From: Patescibacteria group bacterium
GTDB taxonomy: Bacteria; Patescibacteriota; Minisyncoccia; Phycocordibacterales; SBAW01
DNA length: 64,000 nt
Assembly: GCA_016176685.1 (NCBI GenBank)
Contig: JACOWS010000002.1
Coordinates: 94,608 to 158,607 of the forward strand
Direction of reading: 5' to 3'
The notes beneath the pieces were generated by a model. The model was not told the DNA's origin and did no database searches. It saw nothing but the letters and a program-made list of their open reading frames with translations. Below, piece after piece: positions 1,305 through 60,621 of this stretch (positions within the stretch are counted from its first letter, which is position 1; each line of letters opens with the position of its first letter). The position numbers were made by a program, and so were the translations under genes.

Positions 1305-1886
1305 CTAAAGACCGAACCACTGTCGCAACTTCTGATCGTTCTCTATCCCTTCTGCTATAAGATATATAACTCCACCACCAAGTCGTAAATCCACTCTCAA
1401 AAAAGCAACGAGCTCTTCGCAGTCAAATGGACATATCCATACACTATTTTGAATACGCCGGAATCCCGCCTTTTGTAAAGCGAGGCGTAATTTGTCACGC
1501 ATTAGCCGGCGACTTTCCCAAATATCAAACATGACTATCCTCCACTTTCCATCCCACGTTTTTGGAACGCGTATGCGAATATGCTCGGCCGCATGCAACT
1601 TTTCTGCATGCGCCATTCCCTTTTCAGTAAGAGTGGCCGACCAGCCCTGCACGCCTTTCTTCCATTGTACCAGGCCTTTTTGCTCGAGCCGGCGAACGGC
1701 CTGCCTTAGCCGCCGTGTCAGCGTTCCTCTCGTAGATTCTGGGAAAAGATGTTTGCGTAGAACCGCCTCAGGGGCAAGGGCGGCACGCGCGTTTCGGGCA
1801 GTTAAACGAAAAATAGCCAGCGTGATTTTTTGTTGGATTTTCTCCCGTCGCGCGCGCTGTGCTATTTTTTCTTCCAGTTTTTCCAT
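1305..1886 (-). CDS. PaaX-like regulator: winged HTH plus Cas2-like domain, copy 1
   Basis: wHTH (AVRRLEQKGLV...LTEKG) followed by WDGKWRIVMFDI...LQKAGFRRIQNSVWICP, typical of the PaaX central Cas2-like domain. Confidence 0.85.
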   Translation of the reverse strand: MEKLEEKIAQRARREKIQQKITLAIFRLTARNARAALAPEAVLRKHLFPESTRGTLTRRLRQAVRRLEQKGLVQWKKGVQGWSATLTEKGMAHAEKLHAAEHIRIRVPKTWDGKWRIVMFDIWESRRLMRDKLRLALQKAGFRRIQNSVWICPFDCEELVAFLRVDLRLGGGVIYLIAEGIENDQKLRQWFGL

Positions 1887-16974: not shown

Positions 16975-17005
16975 AATTGGTTTTACTAAATTAATAACTT
17001 GTTTG

Positions 17006-29735: not shown

Positions 29736-31442
29736 CTACTTTCGCAACTCTTGCTGGCGGCGCGCAAGCTCTGTAATTTTTTTTGTATCTTCGCCTGCTT
29801 GGGACAATTCCTCGCCGACAATGTGCTCCTCCACGCGGCGCAGCAGGTCGCCAACCACCTTGACTTCGTTTTCGCTGGCATCGCATTCGCTGTCGAATGC
29901 AAACCGTAAGGCCTCCGCGTGCGACAGTAACTTTTCTTCCAGTGCTAGTATCCGCTCGGCCCCCACCAACTCTATAAGGCGTTTATGCATCGGGCCGTCT
30001 TTTTCTCCTCCGGAAAAATGATACAAAAGCATGCCAACCGCCCGCTCAAAAGCGGATAGTTCCGGCATGGCTGGAGCCCCTTGTGGCGAATCCTCGGCCG
30101 GCTCGGTAAGAGCCGGCCGTTTGGCCACCTCGGCCATAACCGCTTCTTCGGGGACCTTAAGGCGAGCCGCTACCAAAGATATAAAGTGTGCCTGCTCTAT
30201 ACGGCTTTTAAGCGCCGCAACAAGAGGCAGCACCTGCGCCTCAATCAGGCGCTCATATGCTCGGTTATCGCGCGCGCCCGCTTGCAGTGTGTCGAGAAAA
30301 AACTCTACGGCGGTTTTAGAGGTGCGGATAGCCGCCTTGAGAAGCTCGGGGTTTTGCCCGGCAAGGTCGGCCGGGTCCTTACCCTCGGGGAAAGTTGCGA
30401 CCTTTACCTCAAACCCGTCCTTGAGTGCCATAAGGGTGGACTTGAGGCCTGAACGTAGCCCCGCTTGGTCGGCATCAAGCGCCAGGACGAGGCGTTTGGA
30501 GAACCGTCCGAGTAGAGACAGGTGCTCTTGCGTAAGCGCCGTGCCGGAGAGCGCCACGGCAAACGGCAAACCAGACTGATGCGACAAAATGAGGTCAAAC
30601 TGCCCCTCGACTAACAGGATGCAGTCGGCCTTGCGGATAGCCTGCTTGGCGCGGTCAAAGCCATAGAGAATGCGAGATTTTTTAAACAGCAAAGTCTCCG
30701 GTGAGTTTACATATTTGGCGCTAGACAGCTCGCCCCGCGAGCTGTCGGCCGAACTTCCGGCTTTGCCGGAAGTTTTAGGCGGCATTTCTTCAAAGATCCT
30801 GCCCGAAACCGCGACCACCCGCCCGCCGGTATCCATAATGGGAAATATGATCCGGCCGCGGAAGCGGTCAAAAATTTCGCCCGGCTTTTTTTCCGACCGC
30901 ACGGCAAACCCCGCTTCAACAATGTGGTCTTTGCTAAAACCTTTTGCAAGCAGATGTTTTGAAAGCTCTTCCCAAGCGGCAGGAGCATACCCCAGCCGCC
31001 ACGTTGCCTCGGTAGTCGGCTCTACCCCGCGGTGGTGTAAATACTCCCGCACATCCTTTCGTCCCTTAAGATTTGCTTCAAAAAATTTTACCGCTTCTTC
31101 GCACACTTCTCGCAAGTGTTCTTCTTTTTGTTTGTCTTCCGGACGTTTTGGAGCCCTGTGTTCCAGTGTGACCCCTGCCTTTTCTGCAAGTTGCGCGAGC
31201 GCGGTCGGGAAGTCGCTCCCCTCTATTTTTTGCACGAAGGAAAAGACATCGCCCTTTTCCCCGCAACCAAAACACATGTAGGTGCCGCGCTCCGGCGAGA
31301 CAAAAAACGACGGCGTGCGCTCTTTGTGGAAGGGGCACCGCGCGGTGTAGTTGCGGCCGGCTTTTTTGAGCGGTACATACTGCCCCACCACGTCCACAAT
31401 ATTCAGCCGTGCCTTTATTTTTTCAACATCCGACCCTGCCAT
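29736..31442 (-). CDS. dnaG: DNA primase
   Basis: CPFHKERTPSF...CFGC zinc finger, KYVNSPET, VEGQFD, DADQAG. Confidence 0.95.
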   Translation of the reverse strand: MAGSDVEKIKARLNIVDVVGQYVPLKKAGRNYTARCPFHKERTPSFFVSPERGTYMCFGCGEKGDVFSFVQKIEGSDFPTALAQLAEKAGVTLEHRAPKRPEDKQKEEHLREVCEEAVKFFEANLKGRKDVREYLHHRGVEPTTEATWRLGYAPAAWEELSKHLLAKGFSKDHIVEAGFAVRSEKKPGEIFDRFRGRIIFPIMDTGGRVVAVSGRIFEEMPPKTSGKAGSSADSSRGELSSAKYVNSPETLLFKKSRILYGFDRAKQAIRKADCILLVEGQFDLILSHQSGLPFAVALSGTALTQEHLSLLGRFSKRLVLALDADQAGLRSGLKSTLMALKDGFEVKVATFPEGKDPADLAGQNPELLKAAIRTSKTAVEFFLDTLQAGARDNRAYERLIEAQVLPLVAALKSRIEQAHFISLVAARLKVPEEAVMAEVAKRPALTEPAEDSPQGAPAMPELSAFERAVGMLLYHFSGGEKDGPMHKRLIELVGAERILALEEKLLSHAEALRFAFDSECDASENEVKVVGDLLRRVEEHIVGEELSQAGEDTKKITELARRQQELRK

Positions 31443-31538
31443 AGTCCCCCTAGTGTACTCCACCCACCCCACCCCTCCGACTTGACGAGGTGAGAAATTA
31501 AAGTTAAAAAGTATTTAGAAAGAAAAGGGGAGGTCCTT

Positions 31539-31718
31539 ATGGAAAACTCAAGATACAGACCGGTTACCCTTGCGTGTGCTTTTATGTTGAGCGCCTATAT
31601 CGGCTTTTTGTCCGGCATGATGGTGTGGGTGGAGTTTGCATCCGCGCAGTTGAGCCTAGGCGTTGCCGCGCTTGTATGTGCGGTTATGATGGCAGCCTGG
31701 CTCACCAAGTGTATTTAA
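31539..31718 (+). CDS. 59-aa two-TM membrane protein (not in the ORF track)
   Basis: GGGAGG Shine-Dalgarno, then MENSRYRPVTLACAFMLSAYIGFLSGMMVWVEFASAQLSLGVAALVCAVMMAAWLTKCI*. Confidence 0.6.
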   Translation: MENSRYRPVTLACAFMLSAYIGFLSGMMVWVEFASAQLSLGVAALVCAVMMAAWLTKCI

Positions 31719-31777
31719 GGCACTGGCCAAGGACAGCAGCCCACGCGGGTAACACTCGCACCAGTTCGCAACGCCAA

Positions 31778-31812
31778 ACGGCGGCCCCATAGGCCGCCGT
31801 TTAATTTTTTTA
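31778..31812. terminator. Intrinsic terminator hairpin
   Basis: AACGGCGGCC-ccata-GGCCGCCGTT followed by a T-rich tract, between convergent genes. Confidence 0.7.
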
Positions 31813-31824
31813 TAACTCAATTTG

Positions 31825-38703
<6,879 letters not shown>

Positions 38704-38942
38704 AGTGTTATAGGTTACGCGAGCGAACGGTTAGTAATTGGGGCAAAACTACTTATGTAAAAAGTTGCAAGGACGTTATCCACAACCCATTAACACGAAA
38801 ATGGCGGACACATAGAGCGTCCTCCTTTGCAGGTCCTTATTTCCTCTTAGGTGGCTCCCATTGCCACTTTGTTATTATCGAAACCGAGTCACCGTTACTC
38901 AATCTCCGCCGGCTGGCGGATGCCCTCTTAGTTTCGCTACCC

Positions 38943-38970
38943 AGTATACTCGGCCCATGCAAGCTGTCAA
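38943..38970 (-). promoter_or_regulatory. Sigma70-type promoter for rpoBC
   Basis: TTGACA-16-TATACT on the minus strand, about 235 nt upstream of the start. Confidence 0.6.
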
Positions 38971-39051
38971 GAGCCGTTTCCACAACCTTGTCACCGTCTC
39001 TTAATTATGGCATAGTGACCAGCAGACAGTCTGACGCGAAAGGAACTGATC

Positions 39052-39588
39052 ATGCACGAGTTAAAACATTATACGGATCCTTTTGACTTTATCCGCTACG
39101 CTCTTTCCTGCGAGCAAAGTTATGCAGGGGGCGGCAAAGCGGCATCCGTTCCTGAAATGCCCGGGTGGAAGGGGTACGAAGTATCAGACCCAGAGCGTAA
39201 ATGGCGGTTGGTTGATCGCTACTGGGTCAACAAGAGTGGAATGTCCGGCGGCTATACCTGCATGTGGGACGGCCGTGACATAAAAATGTACATGACCCTC
39301 CAAGGGTTTTACCCAAAAGAAGCCACGCTATTTCTGCGTGAGGTTCTCAAGTTCACCCACACGCACCATAAAGAGTTCCTCGGCTTCCGTGGTGCTTCGT
39401 GGTTGTCTAGGCCAAAACTCGGCTTCATATACAAAAATCGAATGTCTTCTGCTGAGGGGTTTGATCAGCCAAGCTGCTTCCGTGGCAAAGAGGCCGTCTA
39501 CAGGATTCTTCCGTCTAGTGAAGACGACCCGACCTCTTCAGCAACCCAGGTCGGATATCACCTCTATCAAGGTGCGATGTTCGCTTAA
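39052..39588 (+). CDS. Hypothetical protein (DUF5680-like)
   Basis: SYAGGG...DRYW...SGG...FRG...FRGKE pattern resembles DUF5680 from memory; AGGA Shine-Dalgarno. Confidence 0.5.
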   Translation: MHELKHYTDPFDFIRYALSCEQSYAGGGKAASVPEMPGWKGYEVSDPERKWRLVDRYWVNKSGMSGGYTCMWDGRDIKMYMTLQGFYPKEATLFLREVLKFTHTHHKEFLGFRGASWLSRPKLGFIYKNRMSSAEGFDQPSCFRGKEAVYRILPSSEDDPTSSATQVGYHLYQGAMFA

Positions 39589-39592
39589 AAAT

Positions 39593-39622
39593 AGAGCCGG
39601 AGCGCATTTGCGCTCCGGCTCT
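39593..39622. terminator. Hairpin between convergent genes
   Basis: AGAGCCGGAGCGCA-tt-TGCGCTCCGGCTCT. Confidence 0.7.
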
Positions 39623-39676
39623 CAATATTTCTACTAAATTTCTACCAATTTATAAAAACTTTACACAAAACTAGTC

Positions 39677-39714
39677 TTTACCATATATACCGCTATAGCA
39701 TTGTTTATGGTAAA
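39677..39714. repeat. 38-bp quasi-palindromic repeat, type B, downstream of PaaX-like gene 2
   Basis: TTTACCATA-tatacc-GCTATAGC-attgtt-TATGGTAAA; 35/38 identical to 40324-40361. Confidence 0.9.
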
Positions 39715-39727
39715 TACCTTGTTGCAT

Positions 39728-40315
39728 TTATTCTAAATCAAAATGCTGTTTAAGGTGTTTATCGTTCTCTAATCCTTCCGCAATGATATATAGAATGCCC
39801 GACCCAAGCTTTAGATCACTCCGTATGAATGCAATAAGTTCTTCGCAGGGATACGGGTGTACCCAGACGCTGTCTTGCAACATATAAAATCCAGCTTTCT
39901 TAAGGATGTTTCGCAACCGCTCTCGAACTTGCTTGCGTTTCTCCCACACATCAAAAATGACCACCCTCCATTTTCCATCCCATCGACGCGGCTGGCGAAT
40001 TTCTATACGACGGACAACCTCAAGCCGTTCGGCAAATTTCTCACCCTTTGTGGTCAATAGTATTCTCCACTCCTTCCCTTTTCCTTCTTGCTGAACAAGA
40101 CCACGAGACTCTAGACGTCTTACAGCTTGTTGGATACGATACCCAGGCTTACGTTTTTTTGCGAGGTCTGGATCAATGCGCTTTAACAGCCTGAGAGTGT
40201 TTGGAGCTAGTAGCACCATAGAAAGTGCGGCCGCACTGTACAGAGCAAGGACGAGGCCATCCTGTACTCGAACTCGTTTAGTAATTTTTCGGCTTCGCTC
40301 CTCTAACTGCCCCAT
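39728..40315 (-). CDS. PaaX-like regulator: winged HTH plus Cas2-like domain, copy 2
   Basis: AVRRLESRGLV...LTTKG; WDGKWRVVIFDV...LQDSVWVHP. Confidence 0.85.
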   Translation of the reverse strand: MGQLEERSRKITKRVRVQDGLVLALYSAAALSMVLLAPNTLRLLKRIDPDLAKKRKPGYRIQQAVRRLESRGLVQQEGKGKEWRILLTTKGEKFAERLEVVRRIEIRQPRRWDGKWRVVIFDVWEKRKQVRERLRNILKKAGFYMLQDSVWVHPYPCEELIAFIRSDLKLGSGILYIIAEGLENDKHLKQHFDLE

Positions 40316-40323
40316 CACTCCAG

Positions 40324-40361
40324 TTTACCATATATACCGCTATAGCATAAATTATGGTAAA
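40324..40361. repeat. 38-bp repeat, type B, upstream of PaaX-like gene 2
   Basis: TTTACCATA-tatacc-GCTATAGC-ataaat-TATGGTAAA, 8 nt before the ATG. Confidence 0.9.
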
Positions 40362-40410
40362 TATGTTTTGATTTAGATTGTAACTGTAAAAACTATAGCC
40401 ATTGAGCTAC

Positions 40411-41088
40411 CTATGCAGGCTTGCTGCGCTTTTTTTGCTTCCAGCTATCCATGTTGGCGTGGTGGCCGGAAAGGAGCACTTTGGGGACCCGGTACGACTT
40501 CCCTCTTACCTTCAAAGCTTCTGGGCGGGTATATACATCGTGGCTGGCTACTCGCGACTCTTCCAGTGACTCAAACTTCCCCAACACACCCTTAAGTTGG
40601 CGTGCTGTGGCGTCTATAACAGCTAGTGCTGGCACCTCGCCGCCGGTCAAAATGTAGGGACCTACAGACACTTCCTGTGCTTTTAGTATCTTTTTTGCAC
40701 GTGCATCGATACCCTCATATCGGCCACAGACAATGATGACATCTTTTTGTTTAGTAAGTTCTTTGGCGTAAGCGTTTGTCAGAGGTTTGCCGCCTGCCGC
40801 GGTGATAATCACCTTGGCGCGAGGCTTGTTCTCTTTTATCTTACGCACCGCCGCTAGTATCGGTTCGGCGCGCAAAACCATACCCGGGCCGCCGCCGTAG
40901 GGACGCCCGTCTACTTTGCCCCACTTGTTGCCTGCAAAGTCGCGCAATTGGTAGGTTTTAACCGACAAAATTTTCTCCCGCCGGGCAGAGCTCTCTGGGC
41001 GGCGCCTTTTTTGCGCGCGGCCCAAAATAGACGCGCTCGTATACGCCTCTATTACTTTGGGAAAAAGAGTGACGACGTGAAAATTCAC
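40411..41088 (-). CDS. trmD: tRNA (guanine-N1)-methyltransferase
   Basis: RPYGGGPGMV, CGRYEGIDAR, ILTGGE, VLLSGHH. Confidence 0.95.
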   Translation of the reverse strand: MNFHVVTLFPKVIEAYTSASILGRAQKRRRPESSARREKILSVKTYQLRDFAGNKWGKVDGRPYGGGPGMVLRAEPILAAVRKIKENKPRAKVIITAAGGKPLTNAYAKELTKQKDVIIVCGRYEGIDARAKKILKAQEVSVGPYILTGGEVPALAVIDATARQLKGVLGKFESLEESRVASHDVYTRPEALKVRGKSYRVPKVLLSGHHANMDSWKQKKRSKPA

Positions 41089-41112
41089 GTGTTATTTAAT
41101 ACCACAAAAAAA

Positions 41113-41481
41113 CTAGAGTTTCAAGTCTTCCATCGCTTCATCGACAGATTTCATCGAGGGGGATGCGGGCTTCTCGTGGGAGCCGTCCCATCCTTCGCCA
41201 GTCTCCTTTTCGCCCCCAACAAAACGAGTGCTCCCTGCGGGCTCGTTTATTTTGAGGTTTACTCGGGCATTGTGCTTCATGCCAACCACGCGCAAAAGCG
41301 TACGTATAGCTTTGGCGGTATTGCCGGAGCGGCCTATCACCTTGCCCATGTCTTCCGGATTAAGGTCGAGAGCCAAAAGAACGCCCATCTCGTCGACGGT
41401 GCGGTTGATTTTGACATCGTCCGGATGCTCAACCAGCCCTTTTACCACAAACTCCAAAAAATCTTGGTCTCTCTCTGCCAT
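41113..41481 (-). CDS. khpA: KH-domain RNA-binding protein
   Basis: DMGKVIGRSGNTAKAIRTLL, located between rpsP and trmD. Confidence 0.85.
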   Translation of the reverse strand: MAERDQDFLEFVVKGLVEHPDDVKINRTVDEMGVLLALDLNPEDMGKVIGRSGNTAKAIRTLLRVVGMKHNARVNLKINEPAGSTRFVGGEKETGEGWDGSHEKPASPSMKSVDEAMEDLKL

Positions 41482-41519
41482 CACAGTATATTTAGTTAAA
41501 TAAAAGTACCTCTTATATT

Positions 41520-41864
41520 CTATTGAGTGGGAGTCTCTTCGGCAACCGCGTTATCCACTGCGGGGGCTTGCGCATCCTTGCCTTCCATGGCTTTCGCATA
41601 GGATGGGAGCACGTTTATTTTTTTGGCGTCTATAATTTTTTGCGAGACCAGCAGATTATGCACCGTGTCGCTTGTTTGCGCGCCGTGCGCCATCCAGTGT
41701 TTGATACGCTCAATTTTAAGGTCAACCCGGTCACTGCGCGAGTCGTAGGAGCCCACCATTTCGAGATAATTGCCGGTCTTTGGTTTTTTCTTTGAGTCAA
41801 CTACAATAACCCGAAAACTCGGGTCATTTTTGCGGCCAACGCGGCTGAGGCGGATCATGAGCAT
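41520..41864 (-). CDS. rpsP: 30S ribosomal protein S16
   Basis: MLMIRLSRVGRKNDPSFRVIV...GAQTSDTV. Confidence 0.95.
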   Translation of the reverse strand: MLMIRLSRVGRKNDPSFRVIVVDSKKKPKTGNYLEMVGSYDSRSDRVDLKIERIKHWMAHGAQTSDTVHNLLVSQKIIDAKKINVLPSYAKAMEGKDAQAPAVDNAVAEETPTQ

Positions 41865-41905
41865 GTGCGCGACACTGTAGCATACTCATGCTATAGTGGC
41901 AAGAA

Positions 41906-43861
41906 GTGACGCATAATAAGGATTCTTCGGAGAAGAAGAGTATCTCCGGCATTATTGAAATAACCCGCCGCGGCGTAGGGTACGTACCTTTTAGCGCGAA
42001 AACTACAAAGGGTAGTAAATCTCTCGAGGACATCGAAATCCATACAGAAGACCTGGCTGGTGCCTTAAATGGCGACGAAGTGGAAGTAGCGGTGTCAAAC
42101 CTATTTCCACGCCCCAAGGGCTTTGTAATACGCGTAGTGGCGAGGGTAAAAGAGGATTTTGTCTGTACACTTAAAAAAGAGGGCGCGGTGATGTTTGCAT
42201 TGCCGGATGATAAAAAGTTTTATAAACCAATTCTACTAAAAAAAGTTCCGCCGTATGCCGAGGGAGAAAAGGTGCTGGTGCACCTGCTCTCTTTTGACGG
42301 AAAGACGGACCCGCTCGGGAGTGTGACCGAACACTTGGGCCGTGCGGGAGAACATCGCGTAGAGATGAACGCGATAGTTTTGGAAAAAGGATTTGCCACC
42401 CGCTTCCCTGAAGTGGTTCTGAAAGAGGCGCGAGAGATAGAGCGCACCCACAAAAAAACAATTCAAGAAGAGGCGCGCGTGCGCACCGACTTCCGCGACA
42501 CCCCGACCTTTACCATCGACCCCGCGGATGCAAAAGACTTTGACGATGCGCTTTCTTTTGTGGCACTCCAAGACGGCACGTTTGAGGTCGGGGTGCACAT
42601 TGCCGATGTCACTCACTTTGTGCGCCCCGGCATGGCGCTTGAGGAAGAGGTGGTTAAACGCGGCACGAGTGTCTACCTGGTTGACTCGACCATACCCATG
42701 CTCCCGTTTGAGTTGTCGGCCGGTGTATGCAGTTTAAAACCAGGCGAGGACCGACTCGCCTTCTCTGCTATCTTTCGCCTCAACGACCAAGGAAAGGTGC
42801 TTTCTAGGCGGTTTGAAAAGACAATTATCCGCTCACACAAACGCTTTAGTTACGAAGAGGCTCAATCGGTTCTCAACTCCGGCAAAGGGCACTTTGCCGC
42901 AGAGCTCTGCACCTTGCGACACCTTGCGCGCATCTTGCGCAAAGGTCGCGAGCAAAAAGGAGCTATAGACTTTGGCGACAACGAGGTGCGCTTTACCCTG
43001 GATGAACACGGCAAGCCGATCAGCGTGGTGCGCAAAGAGCGGCTAGAGACCATGCAGCTTATAGAGGAGTTTATGCTCCTGGCCAATCGCGCGGTGGCGG
43101 AGCATATACACGAGCTGGCTTCGAAGGTGCCTGAAAAGAGGATGGTGTTTCTCTACCGGATACACGACGAGCCGAAAGAAGACCGGATAGAGGAACTCGC
43201 CACTTTTGTGCGAGCTATTGGGTATGAGTTTGGGCAGCACAAAAAAACGCCAAGCGCCAAAGACATCGCTAAACTTTTAAAAGATATAGCCGGCAAGCCG
43301 GAAGAGCACTTGATACGCACGGCAACCCTGCGCTCGATGGCCAAGGCCATTTACTCGACCAAAAACATCGGGCACTTCGGCCTGGCTTTTGAACACTATA
43401 CGCACTTCACCTCGCCTATACGCCGCTACCCCGACATGCTGGCACATAGGATACTAGCTTCACACTTAAGCGGTGCCCCGATTGAGCGGCAAGAGTTTGC
43501 CGACCTAGAAAAGAAGTGCGTTGCCGCTTCCCTTTCCGAGGCAAAAGCGGTTGACGCAGAGCGCGAGTCTATACGCTACAAACAGGTGGAGTATATGGGC
43601 ACAAAAATTGGCCAAATGTTTGATGCCGTCATCTCCGGCGTTACAGACTGGGGACTGTATGTCGAAGAAAAAGGCAGCGCCGCCGAGGGGTTGGTGCGCA
43701 TCTCTACCATCGGCAGGGAGTTTTACCGCCACGACCCCAAAAAGTACGCCATTGTCGGCGAGCGTACTAAAACTAAATATACGTTGGGCGACCGTGTGCG
43801 GGTCAAGTTGGTGGCGGCAGACCTCTCCGCCCGCACGCTAGATTTTGAGTTAGGTAGGTAG
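41906..43861 (+). CDS. rnr: Ribonuclease R
   Basis: TIDPADAKDFDDA, IEEFMLLAN, HFTSPIRRYPD, C-terminal S1 domain. Confidence 0.93.
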   Translation: MTHNKDSSEKKSISGIIEITRRGVGYVPFSAKTTKGSKSLEDIEIHTEDLAGALNGDEVEVAVSNLFPRPKGFVIRVVARVKEDFVCTLKKEGAVMFALPDDKKFYKPILLKKVPPYAEGEKVLVHLLSFDGKTDPLGSVTEHLGRAGEHRVEMNAIVLEKGFATRFPEVVLKEAREIERTHKKTIQEEARVRTDFRDTPTFTIDPADAKDFDDALSFVALQDGTFEVGVHIADVTHFVRPGMALEEEVVKRGTSVYLVDSTIPMLPFELSAGVCSLKPGEDRLAFSAIFRLNDQGKVLSRRFEKTIIRSHKRFSYEEAQSVLNSGKGHFAAELCTLRHLARILRKGREQKGAIDFGDNEVRFTLDEHGKPISVVRKERLETMQLIEEFMLLANRAVAEHIHELASKVPEKRMVFLYRIHDEPKEDRIEELATFVRAIGYEFGQHKKTPSAKDIAKLLKDIAGKPEEHLIRTATLRSMAKAIYSTKNIGHFGLAFEHYTHFTSPIRRYPDMLAHRILASHLSGAPIERQEFADLEKKCVAASLSEAKAVDAERESIRYKQVEYMGTKIGQMFDAVISGVTDWGLYVEEKGSAAEGLVRISTIGREFYRHDPKKYAIVGERTKTKYTLGDRVRVKLVAADLSARTLDFELGR

Positions 43862-43937
43862 TTGGGCGGAAAAGTCCTCCGTGCAGGAGTAGGGCTCTTG
43901 TTTATCTCTCCGGAGCGGAGGACTTTTCCGCCCAACT
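43860..43937. repeat. Palindromic element between convergent rnr and smc (22-bp perfect arms)
   Basis: AGTTGGGCGGAAAAGTCCTCCG / CGGAGGACTTTTCCGCCCAACT; core shared with 27380-27455. Confidence 0.8.
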
Positions 43938-46180
43938 TATTTCGCTACGGCGAGCGCTTCTTCGAATTTTACTGAAAGGAGTTTGGATGCACCATCGGTG
44001 CCCATGGTGATGCCGTAGAGGACGCCGGCACGCGACATTGTCTCGCGATTGTGGGTTATCAAAATGAGCTGTGACTTCTTCGCCAAATTTTCTATCATAT
44101 CGCCGTAGCGGCGGCTGTTGGCCTCGTCCAGTGCCGCATCTGTCTCGTCGAGTATCAAAAACGGCGGTGGATTGACCTGGCTCATGGCAAAAATGAGCGC
44201 GATGGAGGTAAGCGCGCGCTCTCCTCCCGAGAGCGCGTTGAGACCTTTGAGGCGCTTGTGCGGGAGGTTAACCGCAATGTCCACCCCCTCTTCCACAGCA
44301 ACATCCTCTTCGTCATCATTAAGGTTCGACCTTACATCAAGGCTCCCCAAGGTCGAACCTTTTCGTAATCTTTTCTCCTTTACGACAGAAAGCGTGGCGC
44401 TCCCGCCGCCAAACATCAGTTTAAAAAACGCGTCAAACTCCCTGTTGATTTTTTTAATACCTTCTACAAAACGGGTCTCTAGTGTGTCGGTAAGATTGCC
44501 GATAAGTGCGTGGAGTTTTTCGCTCGAGGTCTCTAGGTCGGCCAACTCGCGGGCAAGAAACTGGTCGCGCTTTGTGGTGTCCTGGTACTCTTTAAGCACC
44601 TCCGCTCCCCCTCCAGCGCCAAGCCCTTCGAGTTTTATTTTCATCCTCTCAAGCGCCCTTCGTCTGCCTTCTTGTTTTGTACGTGACTCTTCCATTATTT
44701 CTGCAGTACCAACCTCCTCACCTCCCGCGGCGCTGATGCGGTAAGATTCGTACTCTAAAATTTCGCGCCCCAACAGCACTCCCGCTTCGGTAAACTCGGC
44801 CTTAAACGCCGCCTGGTCGCGCGCCAACATCTCCCCCTTGGCGCGCAAGCCCACCAATTGTGCCTCAAGCTCTCCGCGGCGAGCCATTGCCTCAAACAAT
44901 TCCCTCTGGGCCTCGTTTGCCGCGTCTTTCTCACTTTCTATACGGCGGCGCAGTGCGGCGACCTCAACCACCATGCGCTCTTCAACATTACCGATGTCGC
45001 AGAGCTCTTTTTCAAGTACGCGCTTTCTTTTTGCCAGTTCTTCGCCCTCTTTGGCGGGGACGTCCAGCGCCGTGATGCGTCCCACAAAATCTTTGGCGAT
45101 AGCGATGAGTGTTTTTATACGGTTGGTAAGTTCCGCGCCTTCAAGCGAGAGTGCTTCGCTAAGACCCTGCTCTACCTGCGTCGCAAATGCGCGTGTTTCC
45201 GCCGCTGGTACCTGCCCCTCTTGGTGCGCCACAAGGCGAGTGTGTGCGGCAAGCTCGCCCTCGATGCGGCCAAGCTCGCGGGTAACCGCCTCTTTGCGCT
45301 CACGTGCGGTGCGACCTCGAGCCTCAAGCGCTATAAGCTCCTTGGTATCCCTGTCACCACCTTTCTTTCCGCTAAGTTCTTCGCGCAAGCCGGCAATGCG
45401 TTGGTCGAGCGCCGCGCGCTCGGCAAGAGGAACTTCGTTTGCATCAGCCAATTCCTGCCCAACTTTTGCAATATAGACACTTTCCCGCTTAAGATACTCG
45501 GCATAAGCGCTGACGAGTGTATCGCGTAGTTCTTTCGCCTCTTCAATTTTTTTTACCTGGGCGGCAAGAAACTTTATGTGTGGCATAAGTTCGCGACGCA
45601 AGCTTGCCACCTCGCGCATATTTTCTGCAGTTTTTGCCATCTTGCGCTCGGCCTCTTCTCTCTTATATAGGTATGCGGTTAAACCAAGTGCATCCTCTAG
45701 CATCTCCCGACGCTCGCGGGTAGAGGCTAAGAGCGCGCGGTCTGCCTCGCCTTGTGAGATGATGTGGTGTCCCGTGCCGCCTATGTTGGCCTGCGACAAG
45801 AGCTCGGCTATGTCGCGCAGACGCACCTGCGAATTATTCAACAGGTAGTCGTTGACGCCGTCGCGGTGGACCACGCGTTCTATCACCACCTCGTCAAAGT
45901 CGAGGTTTAACCCGCGGTCGTGGTTGTCAAAGGTGAGCTTAACGCTTGCGCGGCCGGCGCGTGGCGAGCTTGTCGAACCATTCCATATCAAATCTTCTCC
46001 GCGCCGGCCGCGCATCGACTTCATCGACTGCTCGCCCAGGCAAAAGCGAAATGCCTCCGCAATGTTGCTCTTGCCGGAGCCGTTTGGGCCGACTATGCCG
46101 GTGACCGCGGACCCAAACTGTAGTTGGGTCTTTTTAACAAACGACTTGAACCCCGCGAGCTCTACCGACTTCAATCGCAT
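43937..46180 (-). CDS. smc: Short SMC-family chromosome segregation ATPase (747 aa)
   Basis: GFKSF, GPNGSGKSN, ISQG, LSGGE, LDETDAALD, ITH. Confidence 0.88.
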   Translation of the reverse strand: MRLKSVELAGFKSFVKKTQLQFGSAVTGIVGPNGSGKSNIAEAFRFCLGEQSMKSMRGRRGEDLIWNGSTSSPRAGRASVKLTFDNHDRGLNLDFDEVVIERVVHRDGVNDYLLNNSQVRLRDIAELLSQANIGGTGHHIISQGEADRALLASTRERREMLEDALGLTAYLYKREEAERKMAKTAENMREVASLRRELMPHIKFLAAQVKKIEEAKELRDTLVSAYAEYLKRESVYIAKVGQELADANEVPLAERAALDQRIAGLREELSGKKGGDRDTKELIALEARGRTARERKEAVTRELGRIEGELAAHTRLVAHQEGQVPAAETRAFATQVEQGLSEALSLEGAELTNRIKTLIAIAKDFVGRITALDVPAKEGEELAKRKRVLEKELCDIGNVEERMVVEVAALRRRIESEKDAANEAQRELFEAMARRGELEAQLVGLRAKGEMLARDQAAFKAEFTEAGVLLGREILEYESYRISAAGGEEVGTAEIMEESRTKQEGRRRALERMKIKLEGLGAGGGAEVLKEYQDTTKRDQFLARELADLETSSEKLHALIGNLTDTLETRFVEGIKKINREFDAFFKLMFGGGSATLSVVKEKRLRKGSTLGSLDVRSNLNDDEEDVAVEEGVDIAVNLPHKRLKGLNALSGGERALTSIALIFAMSQVNPPPFLILDETDAALDEANSRRYGDMIENLAKKSQLILITHNRETMSRAGVLYGITMGTDGASKLLSVKFEEALAVAK

Positions 46181-46193
46181 GGTATGTATGGTA

Positions 46194-46895
46194 TCACCAC
46201 CCTTTTTCCTCAAGCGCATTTTGAGACGCGTCTTGCTCGGCCTCTTGTTTGCTTTTGCCGCTCCCTTCCGCCAAGAGCATATTTTTGACATACACTCCCA
46301 CGACAAACACTTTGTCGTGGTCTGGGCCGGTCTCGCGGATAACCGAGTAAAAAGGAGTGGCTCCTTCGGCTTCTTGCACTTTTTCCTGCAGGGTAGACTT
46401 GGAGTCGCGCCAAAGATTTTTCTTCACTATTTCGTCAATTTTTACCAGGAGATGCGCGGTGATAAAGTTTTTTGCCGCATCATATCCCTGGTCTAGGTAA
46501 ATGGCGCCGATGAGCGCCTCAAATGCGTTGGCAAGGAGCACTCCGCGCGCGCGGCCCTGGTCTTTTGCCTCGCCGCGCGACAAGAGTAAAAAGTCGTTCA
46601 TTTTTATGTCGTTTGCCACCGCGGCGCAGGTCACTGCATTAACCAAAGCCGCGCGATAGGCGGTCAGATCCCCCTCGGTTTTTTCCGGAAATTTATTGTA
46701 CAAAAAATGTGTTGAGACAAGCTCAAGCACCGCATCTCCCAAAAACTCTAAGCGCTCGTTGTGCTCAAGCGCTTCGCCGCGATGCTCGTTTAAGTAGGAG
46801 CGGTGCGTAAACGCCTGCCGCAAGAGCGCCGGGTTTTTAAACGTGAGGTTAAGACTGTGTGCAAAGGTATGTATGTCGCCCTGGGTGTCGTTCAT
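46194..46895 (-). CDS. rnc: Ribonuclease III
   Basis: NERLEFLGDAVL signature plus dsRBD. Confidence 0.95.
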   Translation of the reverse strand: MNDTQGDIHTFAHSLNLTFKNPALLRQAFTHRSYLNEHRGEALEHNERLEFLGDAVLELVSTHFLYNKFPEKTEGDLTAYRAALVNAVTCAAVANDIKMNDFLLLSRGEAKDQGRARGVLLANAFEALIGAIYLDQGYDAAKNFITAHLLVKIDEIVKKNLWRDSKSTLQEKVQEAEGATPFYSVIRETGPDHDKVFVVGVYVKNMLLAEGSGKSKQEAEQDASQNALEEKGW

Positions 46896-47812
46896 GTCTT
46901 TTTGCCTGTCCGTGCTGGCTTTTGATTATCGTGTAACAACTGCATTGCTTTGGTTACAATTGGGAGCACATCATCGTAAAAGTTAAGTTCGAGAGCGTCG
47001 TGGAGTTTAAACCAGCGGGCATCGTCGAGCCCGCCGGTTTGTTTAAGCGTGATTTCCGAAAAAGGCGACTCTGCCAAAAAGTATGTCACCTGTTTGCGTT
47101 TTTTACCCACCTCGGGGTCGGAGGCGATATACTCGTTCTCGCCCACCTTGTGTTTGATGGTGATGTCGAGATTCATCTCCTCTTTTATCTCGCGCACGGT
47201 GGCTTGCTCGACCTCTTCATTTTCCTCGATACGGCCCTTGGAAAGCGTCCAGTGCCCAAAGATGTCATGCACGAGTGCGAGATACAACTCGCCCTGGTGT
47301 TTCGCATAGACTATCGCTCCGCCCAGGCGCTCGAGCGGCATCTGCTCGTACGGGACCGTCTTTTTCTTTTTTGAAGTTTCGTCCTTGCCGGGCTCGCCGA
47401 GCTCTTTGTATACCGCTCCCAACACCCCGTTGACAAAACGGCCGCTGTTTTCGCCGCCAAAACTTTTGGCAAGTTCTATGGCCTCGTTGATAGCCACTTT
47501 GGCCGGCACCTTGTCGCGGTCGGCAAACAAGAGCTCAAAGAGCCCGAGCCGCAAAACATTCCTGTCGACCGGTGCGATACGCGCAAGCGGCCACTCGGGG
47601 GCCGCTTTTTCTATCACGAGGTCAAGGTCGCCACGGCGCTCGATAACTCCTTTTAAAAGGTCGGCCATAAAAGCCGAGTCACCCGCCGCAGGAGCGAACT
47701 CCGCCGTGTTACGCAGAAGCGACTCGTGAGCAGAGGCGCTGGTGGCATTGCGGAAGTCCCACTCGAAGAGCGATTGTAGGACGACCGATCTTGAAAGGTG
47801 CCTGTTTGCCAT
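46892..47812 (-). CDS. nusB: NusB fused to a C-terminal Nudix hydrolase domain
   Basis: DRNVLRL...INEAIELAK.F...FVNGVLG, then Nudix box GRIEENEEVEQATVREIKEEMNL. Confidence 0.9.
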   Translation of the reverse strand: MANRHLSRSVVLQSLFEWDFRNATSASAHESLLRNTAEFAPAAGDSAFMADLLKGVIERRGDLDLVIEKAAPEWPLARIAPVDRNVLRLGLFELLFADRDKVPAKVAINEAIELAKSFGGENSGRFVNGVLGAVYKELGEPGKDETSKKKKTVPYEQMPLERLGGAIVYAKHQGELYLALVHDIFGHWTLSKGRIEENEEVEQATVREIKEEMNLDITIKHKVGENEYIASDPEVGKKRKQVTYFLAESPFSEITLKQTGGLDDARWFKLHDALELNFYDDVLPIVTKAMQLLHDNQKPARTGKKT

Positions 47813-47884
47813 TGTTTTTAAAGAGCTCCTCTACCTCCACTCCCCCGCACAAAGAAACAAAGCCGACGCTCCGGTCTGCTGTAG

Positions 47885-48127
47885 TTACCGGCTCTCGGAT
47901 TTGCTTCCTTCCTTCTTCTTCACCTTTTCTCGCTTAGCTGCCTTAGCGGCCGCTTTGCTTGCATGGTCAACAACGACACGGCCCTTGTACCGGCCGCACG
48001 AAGCACACGCGCGGTGCGACAGACGCGCCGCCCCGCACTCGCAGGTTGAGAGCCCCTGCGCTTTGAGCGCATGGTGGCTGCGGCGGTTAGCCGTGTGGGC
48101 CCTGGTGTGTCGCATCCTGACGACCAT
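47885..48127 (-). CDS. rpmF: 50S ribosomal protein L32
   Basis: RRSHHAL...CECG...[13 protein letters not shown]. Confidence 0.92.
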
Positions 48128-48179
48128 GCTCACACTGTAGCAAGAACACCCTTAAAACACAATCGGGTGTGGGTATGTG

Positions 48180-48212
48180 AAAAGCCGGCCGCGTTGATAC
48201 GCGCCGGCTTTT
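48180..48212. terminator. Intrinsic terminator
   Basis: AAAAGCCGGC...GCCGGCTTTT hairpin. Confidence 0.65.
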
Positions 48213-48232
48213 GATTTTTTCTCCGTTGAAGA

Positions 48233-48460
48233 TTATTCGGCGTGCAGATCTTGACCTGCTTGTGCCGGCGACTGCGAGGTGCGTGGCGAAGGTAAAAACT
48301 CCGCACACTTACACGGGATATGTCTTGTCCCATACTTGAGACATACTACCTCGGTAGGTGTCGACCCCATGCAAGGAGAGAACATATCCTCTCCTCCGTA
48401 TGTGCACCTCGCACAAAGGCACGTTTGATGTTTGCCCTTTCCACCATTTTTTAGACTCAC
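48233..48460 (-). CDS. Small Cys-rich hypothetical protein
   Basis: GAGGAGG Shine-Dalgarno before GTG, own promoter and terminator; 7 Cys in 75 aa. Confidence 0.6.
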   Translation of the reverse strand: MSLKNGGKGKHQTCLCARCTYGGEDMFSPCMGSTPTEVVCLKYGTRHIPCKCAEFLPSPRTSQSPAQAGQDLHAE

Positions 48461-48526
48461 GATTTCCTCCTCAAGTCTTTTGGTTTAAATTTTCCAACCC
48501 AAAAAACAAACAACAACTGATGATAA

Positions 48527-48555
48527 ATACTACGCAACTTATGTTGCACTGTCAA
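48527..48555 (-). promoter_or_regulatory. Sigma70-type promoter with palindromic spacer
   Basis: TTGACA-17-TAGTAT; spacer contains GCAAC-N4-GTTGC. Confidence 0.65.
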
Positions 48556-48556
48556 C

Positions 48557-49132
48557 TTACAAAAAACTGCGGCGGTGTATAGCTGACGGCCCGTGTTTTT
48601 TAAGTGCGCCGTAGTGCGCCTTGGTGCCGTATCCTTTGTGCGTTTCAAATCCATATTCCGGATAGCGCATGGCAAGCCGCCGCATCAGCCGGTCGCGGCG
48701 CACCTTGGCGGCTATGGAGGCCAGCGATATCAGTGGCTCGGTTTCGTCTCCCCGTATGATAGTTTGTTGGAAAATAAACCGCGCGGGCGCCTTGAGTGAG
48801 CCGTCTAAAAGAATACGGGAGGTTTCTGCCGATGCTTCCAAAGAGCGCAGCGCCCGCGCGAGCGCTACCTGCACGGCAGGAACAATACCTTTAGCATCTA
48901 TGTAATGTGCAGAGGAAAAAACCACGGCGTAACGCAGACCCTCCTCTTGTTCTAAAATACGCAGCTTTTCAAACCAAATCTCCCGCCCCAGCTCCGACAT
49001 CTGCTTACTGTCGCGTACGCCCGCAAGCAATGCAAAGTCGAAGTGGCGCGGCACCGCAACCGCTCCAACCGCCACGGGCCCGGCCAAAGGCCCGCGGCCC
49101 GCCTCGTCTATGCCAATCAACAATCGCGCCAT
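48557..49132 (-). CDS. rnhB: Ribonuclease HII
   Basis: GIDEAGRGPLAGPV, DSK, ASIAAKV.RD, HKGYGT. Confidence 0.95.
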   Translation of the reverse strand: MARLLIGIDEAGRGPLAGPVAVGAVAVPRHFDFALLAGVRDSKQMSELGREIWFEKLRILEQEEGLRYAVVFSSAHYIDAKGIVPAVQVALARALRSLEASAETSRILLDGSLKAPARFIFQQTIIRGDETEPLISLASIAAKVRRDRLMRRLAMRYPEYGFETHKGYGTKAHYGALKKHGPSAIHRRSFL

Positions 49133-49150
49133 TAGTAGTAGTATAGAGGT

Positions 49151-52100
49151 ATGGCGGCTCCGTTTGTACACTTGCATGTCCACTCGCACTACTCCCTGCT
49201 TAAAGCCCTGCCCAAAATCCCCGACCTGGTAGCTGCGGCAAAAAAAGAGGGGTGCGAGGCGCTCGCGCTCACCGACCTTGGCAGCATGTATGGCACCATC
49301 GAATTTATAAAAGAGTGCCGCAAGGCCGATATAAAACCAATCGTCGGGCTCGACATCGCGGCCGAGGGAGGCGGGCGCATCATCCTTTTGGTAGAAAACG
49401 CGGCTGGGTACAAAAACCTGCTGGCGCTTATAACCGCCGCCAACTTTGCCGAGCACCAGGGCGAGCCATTGGTGACCCTTGAGGAACTTGCGGGCCGCAC
49501 CGAGGGGCTCCTTGCCATAGGAAATCATCTGGGCGGAGTTCGTGTGTTTGAGTATCAGAAACTGTTTGGCAAAGATAATTTTTATGCCAATGTCGCGATG
49601 CAGGAAATCTTTTATATTGCACCTGGGGACCGGCGCGCGTGGGAAACGCTGTGCGCCATAGGCGAGCGCGGGCCCGCCGACCGTGGCGACATAAACGACG
49701 AGGAGGAGAGCTACGCCTTCCCCACCGCTAAAGAAATGCAAAAACGCTTTTCAAAAGAAGCGCTCGATCAAACGCTGGCCATAGCGGCGCGATGCAACCT
49801 GGAGATTACTCTCGGCTCGTGGATATTCCCACCCTACCTTACCCAAAAAGGCGCTACCTATGACCAAGAACTGCGCCGCAATATAGAAAAAGGGTTGGCC
49901 GACCGCGGGCTCACAAAGACACCAGCCGTATGTGAGCGCATCGAGTACGAATATAAAATCATTTGCGACAAAGGGTACTCGCCGTACTTTTTGGTGGTTG
50001 CCGACCTTCTCCATTTTGCTCGCGAAAGCGGGATACTCGCCACCACGCGCGGCAGCGCCGGCGGCTCGCTCATTTCCTACTTAACCGGCGTCACCACCAT
50101 AAATCCGCTCGAGTATCTGCTACCCTTCGAGCGCTTTTTAAACCCCGAGCGCCCAAAAGCACCCGACATCGACATGGACTTTGCCGACAACCGCCGCGAC
50201 GAAGTTATAGACTACGTCCGCACAACGTACGGCGAAAACCGGGTAGCACAGATAGGCACCTTTGGTACTATGCTCGCGCGCGGGGTGGTGCGCGACGTGG
50301 CGCGTGCGCTTGGGCACCCGTACGGACTCGGCGACCGCATCGCGCGCGAAGTGCCGTTTGGTAGCCAAGGGTTCCCCATGACGCTTGACCGCGCGCTTGA
50401 AGAAAACTCGGCGCTGAAAAAAATGTACGAGAGCGAGCCCGACGTACACGACATTATCGACTTGGGAAAAAAAATAGAGGGCTGTGCGCGCCACATCTCG
50501 GTGCACGCGGCCGGGGTGGTTATCGCACCTGGACCCTTACTCGAGTACGCACCGCTTCAACGCGACCCAAAGGGGGGAAAAATTATCACCCAGTACGACA
50601 TGTACTCCATAACCGACGAGTATGGCGGCGTGGGGTTGCTCAAGTTTGACTTCCTTGGCATACGCAACCTGGCGATTTTAGCGCATGCGGTGAAGCTCGT
50701 GGAGCATATACGAGGGATAAGAGTAGACATAGAGCGCGTCCCCGTGGATGATGCCAAAACATTCGAGATGCTCGCGCGCGGCGAAACCGAGGGGACCTTC
50801 CAGCTGGGCGGCGCCGGGATGACACGGTATCTAAAAGAATTGCGGCCAACCTCCATACACGACATCAACGCGATGGTTGCGCTCTTCCGCCCCGGGCCGA
50901 TGGAGACCATTCCTTCCTACATTGAGCGCAAGCACAACCCCGCGCTCATTACCTACCTCGACCCGCGGATGAAGGATTATCTCGACTTTTCCTACGGCCT
51001 GTTGGTGTACCAGGATGACGTGCTGTTGAGCGCAATAAAAATCGCCGGCTACTCGTGGCTAGAGGCCGACGCTCTGCGCAAAGCGATGGGTAAAAAGATC
51101 CCCGCAGAGATGGAAAAGCAACGGGAAAAACTTATCGCGGGCGCGGTAAAAAACGGGATGTCGCCACAAAAAGCGGAACAGTTGTGGAAACTCATCGAGC
51201 CTTTTGCGGCGTACGGTTTTGGCAAGGCGCACGCCGCAAGTTATGGGCGCGTGGCATACCAAACCGCGTATATGAAGGCAAATTTCCCCGTGGAGTACAT
51301 GGCGGCGGTACTCACCGCCGAGGCGGGCGACATCGACACCGTGTCGGTGATGGTGCGCGAGTGCAAGCGCATGGGCGTGCCGGTCCTGCCGCCGGACATA
51401 AATGAGAGTTTTGGCGACTTTACCGTGGTGCTTAAGGGGTCGGGAAATCCTAAGGTGGAGCCTATTACTCGCTTTGCTCATGGCTCAGTCTCCACTTTAG
51501 GATTTCCCGACCCAAAAAAAGCTCCGCCTCCTGGGGGCGAGACTGAGCCGTCCGCAAAGCGGACTATAGGCTCGCCCCCAGGAGGCGGAGCTGCGGTAAA
51601 GGACTCGATCCGTTTCGGCCTTTACTCTATTAAAAATGTTGGCAGCGGTGTGGCCGACAGCATTATAGCCGAGCGTAAAGCACGGGGTCCTTTTGTATCT
51701 ATCTCCGACTTTTTGCGCCGCATCAAAGACCAAAACCTCAACAAAAGAGGGCTCGAGTCTTTAATAGAGTGCGGTGCGCTTGATTGTCTTGGCGAGCTTG
51801 GTTCGACAGACGCCGGCCGCGGCGCCATGCTCGCATCGATAGAGCTTTTGCTAGAGTATCACCGCGAAATGTCCAAAGAACAGCCGCAAGACTCGCTCTT
51901 TGCCGGGCAGGGTGACACGGCCGACATCACACTGCCGCCTGCAGAAGCCGCCACGCAAGCACAGCGCCTTGCGTGGGAAAAGGAGCTCCTTGGGCTCTAC
52001 GTTTCCGGACACCCGCTCGACCGGTTTACAGAACAACTTTCCAAACGGCCGATGACCTTGGAAGAGTTGCACAAAAAAATGACACCGGGTATGACCGCCA

Positions 52101-53617: not shown

Positions 53618-53657
53618 ATGTAATATTTACTACACTATAGTTTCTTATTTATTACAT
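53618..53657. repeat. 40-bp quasi-palindromic repeat, type C, downstream of PaaX-like gene 3
   Basis: ATGTAATA-N8-ACTATAGT-N8-TATTACAT; 20/23 identity with 54283-54322 over the right-hand part. Confidence 0.7.
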
Positions 53658-53697: not shown

Positions 53698-54280
53698 TTA
53701 GCCGAGTCTGAAGTGGATGCGCAGAGCCCGATCGTCTTCCACCCTATCAACGATCAGATACAAGACATCCCTACCCAATCCAAGCTCCGCTTTGAGTAAA
53801 ACAACAAACTCTTCACAATTATATGGATATATCCATACGCTATCCTGGAGTCGCACAAAACCGATACCAGTAAGTATTGCCCGCACCTCGCCACGGAGTG
53901 CGTCTTTCAGGGATATCAAAAATCACAACGCGCCACTTTTTATCCCATTTTTTGGGTTTTTTTACCTTGTAGCCGCGAAGTTCCCATTGAGCTACACAAT
54001 TCTTTCCTTTTTTAGTTAGTACAACAAAGGATCCCCGACGGGTCTTTTCCATCATAAGAAATCCCCCTGCGACGAGTCTGGAAATTGCTTTTTTTGTTTG
54101 ATATTTTTTCTGCCGTTCGTACTGCTTCAAAAAAGGTTTTAGCATTGATAGAGCGTTTGGGGCTATGAGTGCTGTGGAGATTACTCCAACCGCAGCTACC
54201 GAGCCGAGTACGGCACGCCGGACAGTGGTCATGCGCATTTTTTTCCGCAGGTCTTTCTCAAGAGATACAGGTGGTTTCAT
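53698..54280 (-). pseudogene. PaaX-like wHTH/Cas2-like gene, copy 3, frameshifted near 53900
   Basis: WDKKWRVVIFDIPER in ORF 53840-54280; GFVRLQDSVWIYPYNCEE in the overlapping frame 53698-53919. Confidence 0.8.
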
Positions 54281-54282
54281 AC

Positions 54283-54322
54283 TTGTAGCGGATAACCTAC
54301 TATAGAATTTTATTTATTACAA
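54283..54322. repeat. 40-bp repeat, type C, upstream of PaaX-like gene 3
   Basis: TTGTAgcggataacctACTATAGaattTTATTTATTACAA, 2 nt before the ATG. Confidence 0.7.
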
Positions 54323-60398: not shown

Positions 60399-60565
60399 AA
60401 AATTGAAGAAAGCCCACACAGGCTTTACCTATTTATTATACCAAATACCGGCCTATTTTGAAAGGGTGTGGATAGCCAATCCACCTTGCAAAACAAGGGT
60501 TCTAGGGGAGCGACCGGCACTTTGTTTTTTAAAGTCTATTGTATAAATAGGGTCAATTATAAATT

Positions 60566-60599
60566 AACCTTAATCGTAACGACCGTTATAGCTAAGGTT
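60566..60599. repeat. Solo copy of the type A 34-bp repeat between pheT and gyrB
   Basis: AACCTTA-atcgta-ACGACCGT-tatagc-TAAGGTT; 27/34 identical to 1266-1299. Confidence 0.8.
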
Positions 60600-60621
60600 A
60601 AAATGTTTTAAATAATTGATG

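Follow-up and report, generated by a model that had tools for sequence, protein, structure and literature searches.

A winged-helix and Cas2-fold gene bracketed by near-identical 38-bp dyad sites behind trmD in a Patescibacteria genome: a candidate autorepressed gene-plus-site module

Directly behind the 3' end of trmD, in the 550-kb and 98% complete genome of an ultra-small groundwater bacterium whose named relatives are Patescibacteria, a small gene lies between two near-identical palindromic sequences. We analysed it within a window, a stretch of 64,000 nucleotides to which all coordinates below refer. The gene (39728..40315, minus strand) encodes a protein of 195 aa with a winged helix-turn-helix (wHTH) and a Cas2 fold, whose sole Pfam match is PF20803 (E 7e-20) and which ends after the Cas2 domain. 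The upstream 38-bp dyad site (40324..40361; arms TTTACCATA / TATGGTAAA, centre GCTATAGC) starts 49 nt past the stop codon of the host gene trmD (40411..41088, minus strand) and ends 8 nt before the ATG of the small gene, with no ORF intervening, and the downstream site (39677..39714) lies 13 nt past the stop codon of that gene. Beyond the downstream site follow a bidirectional intrinsic terminator hairpin with a 13-bp stem (39593..39622), a convergent accessory ORF of 178 aa without a Pfam match (39052..39588, plus strand) and then a fused rpoBC gene, in which rpoB and rpoC form a single ORF of 2292 aa (31825-38703, minus strand). Because homologues of the 178-aa ORF occupy the same trmD-rpoBC interval in relatives that lack the cassette (contigs L087, L107 and L110), often together with a similar terminator, we place this ORF outside the module; hairpins like the one described here are likewise found behind trmD in relatives without the cassette. 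As a whole, this interval (L082-L110) is a hot spot where genomes of the genus carry different, unrelated small ORFs of an accessory kind. Elsewhere in the window (11584-17112, minus strand) are two large surface-type ORFs, with a DUF11 plus peptidoglycan-binding domain and calcium-binding nonapeptide repeats.

A preliminary description of this DNA had reported a pair of near-identical repeats that share the arm spacing of the sites around a first paralog (type A) and differ from them in the centre, and our analysis bears this out. The two sites form a direct repeat, 35/38 identical and 647 bp apart from start to start, each made up of a 9-bp arm, 6 bp, the centre GCTATAGC, 6 bp and a second 9-bp arm. 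The arm pattern WACCWTA-N20-TAWGGTW matches five times in the window against 0.00 matches expected from 100 shuffles, and the centre at the first paralog is ACGGTCGT. Such pairs are rare: only nine pairs of 38-mers that agree at 35 or more of 38 positions within 1.5 kb occur in the whole genome. As the same description argued, the downstream copy cannot be the promoter of a co-oriented gene, since a terminator and the convergent 178-aa ORF lie beyond it. By eye, we also noticed a 12-bp inverted match between the last codons of the gene (39732-39743) and DNA just outside the upstream site (40366-40377), which is perhaps due to chance in AT-rich DNA.

One way to obtain such a pair would be a duplication made in assembly, and contigs from separate sequencing runs speak against it. 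In the contigs of four runs we see no other letters, and no joint falls across the cassette; both sites stand on a single contig in run X1 and likewise in run X4. The four runs belong to one study, three of them may represent the source DNA, the comparison is of contigs, and two joints inside trmD with sides of fewer than 30 letters were set aside. Nor did we find an excised, skipped or circular form in the contigs of these four runs, contigs being prone to drop rare variants.

Across the family, the site has symmetric arms and a symmetric 8-bp centre, joined by loose linkers; arm positions 2-9 are 76-93% self-complementary, and in the centre C17 and G22 are near-invariant. Compensatory pairing over 146 sites reaches 80.6%, against 34-43% for slid partners, which, like the position of many sites just behind stop codons and the three Y1-transposase (Y1_Tnp) matches in the genome, all of them elsewhere, would also be expected if the sites acted as RNA or single-stranded hairpins, whether 3' UTR stem-loops or REP-like elements. 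The mismatches, however, show no excess of G·T over A·C (49 vs 45 and 66 vs 53), and we therefore read the site as a duplex dyad and not as an RNA hairpin. Moreover, the linkers are the least paired part, the symmetry reaches the centre and so leaves no workable loop, the cores occur in both orientations, and an Rfam search gave no match near the gathering score. That the sites work as hairpins, or that one copy is an assembly duplication, is thus extremely unlikely. We strongly infer that the protein recognises the 38-bp palindromes around its gene as its cognate sites, in double-stranded form. PaaX offers a parallel, since its operator is described as a long-spaced inverted repeat, TGATTC-N27-GAATCA, through which it represses its own gene (PMC9493321). 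Two further candidates were dropped: a dif-like reading, for which the right arm has a likeness to a XerD arm, as the arms vary freely across the family, and a 2-bp target-site duplication, as the end dinucleotides are, by eye, inverted and not direct.

The predicted fold of the protein, a wHTH followed by a Cas2 domain, has a pLDDT of 85 and PaaX (8a39) as its best structural match; a single-sequence prediction with a pLDDT of 42 was set aside, and the homodimer prediction scored 0.20. We consider it very probable that the protein acts on its site as a dimer. It keeps D122, R131, Q147 and S149, of which D122 and S149 are invariant in 150/150 family members (and in a set of 75/75) and Q147 and R131 are present in 149/150. 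By motif, D122 and S149 correspond to D7 and S43 of VapD, both reported as needed for its RNase activity (PMC3351183), and D122 to D10 of Cas2. The VapD Asp is described as necessary for toxicity and the conserved Cas2 Asp as dispensable for spacer acquisition (PMC11980593). In the family studied here, the Asp could alternatively contact the DNA backbone or a metal without cleaving. In the PaaX-like protein Rv0674, T, R and G stand in place of D, Q and S.

Covariation between protein and site points to a division of labour between the two domains. The bases of the centre covary most strongly with residues of the Cas2 domain (E125, K128, E132 and D148), and for arm bases 2-5 the recognition-helix residues Y59, R60 and Q63 rank in the top five, among noisier hits. 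D148 accompanies TATA-class centres in 24/24 cases and CG-class centres in 11/42, and among new genes it was found in five of six with the former class and one of 13 with the latter; the 11 cases with CG-class centres count against the reading favoured below. The protein behind trmD carries D148 and K128, as is typical of TATA-class centres.

Bracketing by a pair of similar 38-bp dyads is a property of the family. It was found for 75 of the 94 family genes with enough flanking sequence, a lower bound given that some of the 19/94 that failed the filters did so by mis-registration, and for one of 393 control genes, which itself has a lone family site behind it. A hold-out set from other families of the order gave 19/25 bracketed genes, after removal from 28 rows of two from contig L287, an inverted duplication in which the 'downstream site' is a terminator, and of one viral row. 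Kin are not independent in any of the counts given here, those for D148 included, and the trees used throughout are quick trees. The view that the downstream site belongs to the module itself, put forward in the preliminary description, is thereby upheld, the more so as downstream sites seldom contain a -10-like hexamer (4/75, against 21/75 upstream sites). Seventy of the 75 members match the cas2 model TIGR01573 at E<=0.001. The family is large (at least 1,499 clusters at 50% identity, E<=1e-30), and its gene is present in 26/80 genomes of the genus and 68/201 of the order, with up to ten copies per genome in the order survey. We found no match to it on plasmids and one among viral contigs, in which the site pattern itself had 0 matches. 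Broken copies occur, by a frameshift in the third paralog of this genome and by internal stops in others. A search with a site model derived from these cassettes, and so partly circular, gave sites in 19/80 genomes, 18 of them among the 26 with the gene. In G076, which is 93% complete, sites were present and the family gene was not found. Two local observations may be recorded here. In the inverted duplication on L287 (genome G117), a palindromic terminator stands between two family genes that are identical and point towards each other, which may be an artefact of assembly. Contigs L032 and L033 encode proteins that are 89% identical and share the upstream flank, in bins labelled Saccharibacteria and Nomurabacteria, which may reflect transfer between phyla or a mislabelled bin.

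The position of the upstream sites suggests what the protein does to its own gene. The site ends no more than 4 nt from the start codon in 33/75 genes, and 15 of these 33 sites contain a -10-like hexamer, compared with two of the corresponding downstream sites. On this basis the family probably represses its own expression through the upstream site, and the site at 40324..40361 would be the autorepression operator of the gene behind trmD, an assignment drawn from the family-wide overlap with -10 hexamers and start codons; at that site itself, we found no promoter consensus and no -10 score. The simplest extension of this idea is that the protein is a plain autorepressor, whose dimer binds both sites and loops out or roadblocks its own gene, the lone sites described below serving as roadblocks to read-through at gene ends, the Cas2 Asp being structural or a DNA contact, and host gene conversion keeping the sites alike. 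The PaaX fold and the precedent of PaaX self-repression (PMC9493321) suit it, as does the failure to find Rho in this genome. It leaves the invariant D/Q/S set, absent from Rv0674, without an explanation, and it has to accommodate a protein without a ligand domain and the lack of the gene in some two thirds of related genomes. We regard it as possible, though rather unlikely.

This genome holds six paralogs of the wHTH-Cas2 family, each with its own site pair and its own site type. The first (type A; 1305..1886, minus strand; sites at about 1264-1301 and 1886-1923) falls in one subclade with the gene behind trmD and has near-identical arms with a ACGGTCGT centre, and a lone type-A site (60564..60601) lies 20 nt behind the stop codon of pheT. 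Paralog 3 (53698..54280, minus strand), the frameshifted copy, is convergent with thrS and lies between sites at about 53619-53656 and 54284-54321. Cognate lone sites, one or two per type, accompany four of the six paralogs here; in G074 a type can have up to about six.

We tabulated 39 lone-site loci of the genus by hand, several of the class calls being uncertain, and left out L204, where an upstream site sits at a contig end, and a doubtful hit in G050 (L208). Lone sites gather behind genes: the distance to a gene 3' end is at most 50 bp for 33/39 and at most 10 bp for 16/39, and 13 stand between convergent genes compared with two between divergent ones, against a baseline of 43:44. Their neighbours are unrelated housekeeping genes, among them groEL, bipA, relA, metG, tyrS, uvrB, ruvB, rarA, folD and ftsW. 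Compared with their cognate cassettes (n=17), lone sites diverge by 5% in the arms, 2% in the centre and 35% in the linkers, with the caveat that they were found with a model that weights arm and centre positions. Arms and centre are thus kept while linkers drift, which indicates selection for binding, and this would fit a host function, as the plain autorepressor supposes, equally well. Less easily reconciled with it are the lack of a conserved regulon, the lone sites varying from genome to genome, and the enrichment between convergent genes; it also leaves unexplained the appearance of new 38-bp sites and a further arrangement, in which sites of unrelated types abut at an exact 36-bp period (five loci in four genomes: L086, L225, L226, L234 and L245). 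These tandems hold two or three site types, periods of 35 and 40 occur too, and in G001 the same pair of types is found twice. Gene 3' ends may, on the other hand, simply be tolerated landing places for any palindrome.

One locus has the form of sites around a cargo. In G076 (L239:1587-2453), two identical sites 829 bp apart, each followed by a second short palindrome, flank an unrelated ORF of 196 aa behind murG, which has no Pfam match; this end of murG is near an assembly gap, and the two site copies have different flanks. Only one site of that type lies behind murG in the closest relative, G075, and the other 28 murG loci have none. That G075 and G076 have a lone site behind murG in common speaks for the plain autorepressor. 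Another type of site may be represented behind murG on L257 and L259, by palindromes that have a CTTAAG centre and score as possible sites.

This layout also bears on a reading implied by the preliminary description, namely that gene and sites form a cassette able to excise or integrate, with the site pair as its att-like ends and the lone sites as footprints or targets. Several observations have the form that this would take: the G076 site-cargo-site against the single site in G075; the preference for direct orientation (46 vs 17 cassettes, and 91 vs 33 shared asymmetric pairs); the 14/48 close cassette pairs that share no flank; the one tyrosine recombinase in the genome; and lone sites with clade-like arms behind trmD in G008, G076 and G031, where the gene is absent. 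Orientation is nevertheless not strict. Asymmetric cores are inverted in six pairs against 15 direct ones, the inverted orientation fits better in 17/75 cassettes, and on L047 the pair is 38/38 identical when inverted, and the sites therefore do not behave as strict recombination ends. Cassettes are moreover mostly stationary and vertically inherited, as a plain autorepressor would be: a flank is common to 34/48 pairs with more than 62% identity and to 10/10 of those at 80% or more. Against the 108 family genes, only three of 32 lone-site neighbour genes match a known cassette position, so that most lone sites are not footprints of the positions sampled; none of the 108 was found behind pheT. 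With no excised form in the contigs, no Cas1 found, and passive deletion between direct repeats accounting for the trmD footprints without a dedicated enzyme, we hold the att-like reading to be very unlikely.

The history of the trmD slot argues in the same direction. The preliminary description had raised the question whether relatives have a single site or none in the trmD-rpoBC interval. Of 30 trmD loci from the genus, 26 have no site, lone sites occur at two, one hit is uncertain, and the locus of this genome alone holds the cassette. At the trmD stop codon there is one lone site in G008, and in G076 there are two that scored and a third seen by eye; beyond the 30 loci, in G031, a bin with 5% contamination, a lone site lies behind a second, broken trmD copy. 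Also beyond these 30, orthologous cassettes with 58-59% amino acid identity stand right behind trmD in genome G036 and on metagenome contig L046. Since orthologues share the slot while most trmD loci hold none, this is an old slot that is unoccupied in most cases. The cassette had been called the youngest or best preserved of its kind. It is the best preserved within this genome (35/38, against 21-32 in the five other cassettes) and joint third of 75 by direct site identity; with orthologues in the same place, it is not the youngest.

The orthologues in G036 and L046 have the same arms with ACGGTCGT centres, and N148 and R128 in the protein. Within the 15-gene clade, in whose comparison one row (L116) is mis-registered, the GCTATAGC centre occurs only with the gene studied here, which has D148 and K128. 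A third site in this genome, 32 nt behind lysS and in front of a terminator and a convergent gene, has the same GCTATAGC centre and the same asymmetric flank, matches both cassette sites at 33/38 positions and is present at one of 29 lysS loci of the genus; in G036 the cognate lone site is elsewhere, behind thrS. The lysyl-tRNA synthetase of this genome is of class I. All three copies together have thus gone from a ACGGTCGT to a GCTATAGC centre, alongside N148D, and the 35/38 identity reflects a concerted change of both sites and not a recent arrival. For five base changes at three distinct places, one change followed by copying appears the simpler explanation. The switch may insulate the gene at 39728..40315 from paralog 1, which has nearly the same arms and the old centre. 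More widely, upstream and downstream sites are closer to each other than to orthologous sites in 6/8 syntenic groups, with one tie and one failure.

The invariant catalytic set also invites a reading in which the protein would be a toxic nuclease of the VapD kind, restrained by its DNA sites in the manner of a DNA antitoxin: the flanking copies would form a sink and the lone copies add capacity, and loss or degradation of the chromosome would free the nuclease and lead to addiction or abortive infection. The toxicity of VapD needs the equivalent Asp (PMC11980593), site types are specific to paralogs, broken copies occur, and sites are selected without a promoter context, all of which would be in keeping with it. 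How lone sites originate and why they sit at stop codons it does not explain, and we consider it distinctly unlikely.

Tentatively, and short of an even chance, we favour an autorepressed, domesticated module of the kind represented by NTS-ssnA-NTS or REP-RAYT, in which the sites would be copied or homogenised by the protein itself. Its first step, binding, is strongly suggested: a dimer would place its Cas2-fold domains over the central 8-bp dyad and its two winged helices on the outer arms. On the upstream copy, which lies over promoter and start codon, binding would bring about autorepression, as judged from the family. The downstream copy would be one of the non-promoter copies just behind gene 3' ends, a placement that is seen as a pattern. 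The retained Cas2/VapD active site would then nick or cut the bound dyad, a putative activity, and host repair would homogenise the copies and occasionally seed new ones. The outcome would be a low-copy, vertically inherited gene-plus-site module. For copying speak the centre and flank common to all three sites of this gene, the closeness of paired sites in 6/8 syntenic groups, the 36-bp tandems and the two sites around the ORF behind murG in G076. Against it stand the low copy number, unlike that of REPs, the stationary cassettes, the lack of plasmid matches and the single viral contig, the lack of an excised form in the contigs and the two of eight groups without concerted evolution.

A bolder version, which we think unlikely, is that Patescibacteria contain a Cas1-independent family of sequence-specific Cas2 nucleases that cut the centre of a 36-38-bp duplex and write copies of their own site, as the abutting 36-bp arrays and the site-cargo-site might suggest. 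If so, it would be a minimal DNA-writing element, with the specificities for arm and centre separately tunable, and a living model for the role of Cas2 before CRISPR. Cas2 would gain a defined DNA substrate, and what the conserved Asp does would become testable with one 22-kDa protein and a 38-mer. The conservative reading, too, would offer hundreds of natural orthogonal protein-operator pairs with a two-part code, the wHTH for the arms and the Cas2 domain for the centre. These genes are commonly labelled 'cas2' or 'paaX' and occur in a third of the genomes of the order. In a search whose scope excluded subscription journals and supplements, we found no published description of a site-bracketed wHTH-Cas2 family; new here are the cognate lone sites mostly behind gene 3' ends, the 36-bp tandems of different types and the one site-cargo-site.

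Of known proteins, PaaX is the closest in architecture. PaaX (8a39, 3l09; Rv0674, 3kfw; PF07848, PF20803 and PF08223; TIGR02277) shares the wHTH and central Cas2-like domain and, as reported in PMC9493321, has a long-spaced inverted-repeat operator and represses itself, as the present family probably does. PaaX is, however, a protein of 316 aa with a C-terminal acyl-CoA domain for sensing phenylacetyl-CoA, which the 195-aa protein lacks, and against the equivalog model TIGR02277 the latter scores 45.4 bits, where the cut-off is 264.55. PaaX controls paa genes, none of which is found among the neighbours here (trmD, rpoBC and other housekeeping genes) or among the genes before lone sites. The family site further differs in its third, central dyad and in bracketing the gene, and the family keeps the Cas2 Asp, Gln and Ser that the PaaX-like Rv0674 is without.

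In fold and motif the protein also resembles Cas2 (TIGR01573) and VapD (HP0315; PMC3351183, PMC11980593), with which it shares the ferredoxin-like fold, the first-strand Asp and the Q-x-S motif, yet it is fused to a sequence-specific wHTH and bracketed by DNA sites. CRISPR Cas2 works with Cas1, which (as PF01867) was not found in this 98% complete genome, in a search whose control was positive in 7/14 genomes; neither is there an adjacent repeat-spacer array, 30000-50000 containing only the two-copy repeat. With VapD-type toxin-antitoxin systems it has the catalytic Asp and Ser in common, but no adjacent antitoxin gene, the DNA downstream holding only the terminator and the convergent ORF.

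In layout, the likeness is to gene-plus-repeat systems. Ssn/NTS (Chenal et al. 2025, PMC11893778) is described as a small nuclease-fold gene flanked by cognate palindromic repeats with dispersed copies, homologue-specific repeat variants and an IS-like repeat-gene-repeat arrangement, all of which it shares with the present family. As portrayed there, though, Ssn is a monomeric GIY-YIG enzyme that cuts single-stranded hairpins present in up to hundreds of copies, whereas the wHTH-Cas2 protein has no GIY-YIG domain, its sites read as fixed-length duplex dyads without a hairpin signature and are few in number, and its nuclease activity is putative. RAYTs with REP/REPIN sequences, as described in PMC5581495, are similarly single-copy and mostly vertical genes with cognate palindromes in their flanks and in other extragenic space; the gene bracketed here differs in having no Y1/HUH domain, no REP doublets, a low copy number and a tripartite, apparently duplex site. 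The module thus works most like NTS-ssnA-NTS or REP-RAYT, yet it fails membership of both, as it does of PaaX and of CRISPR Cas2.
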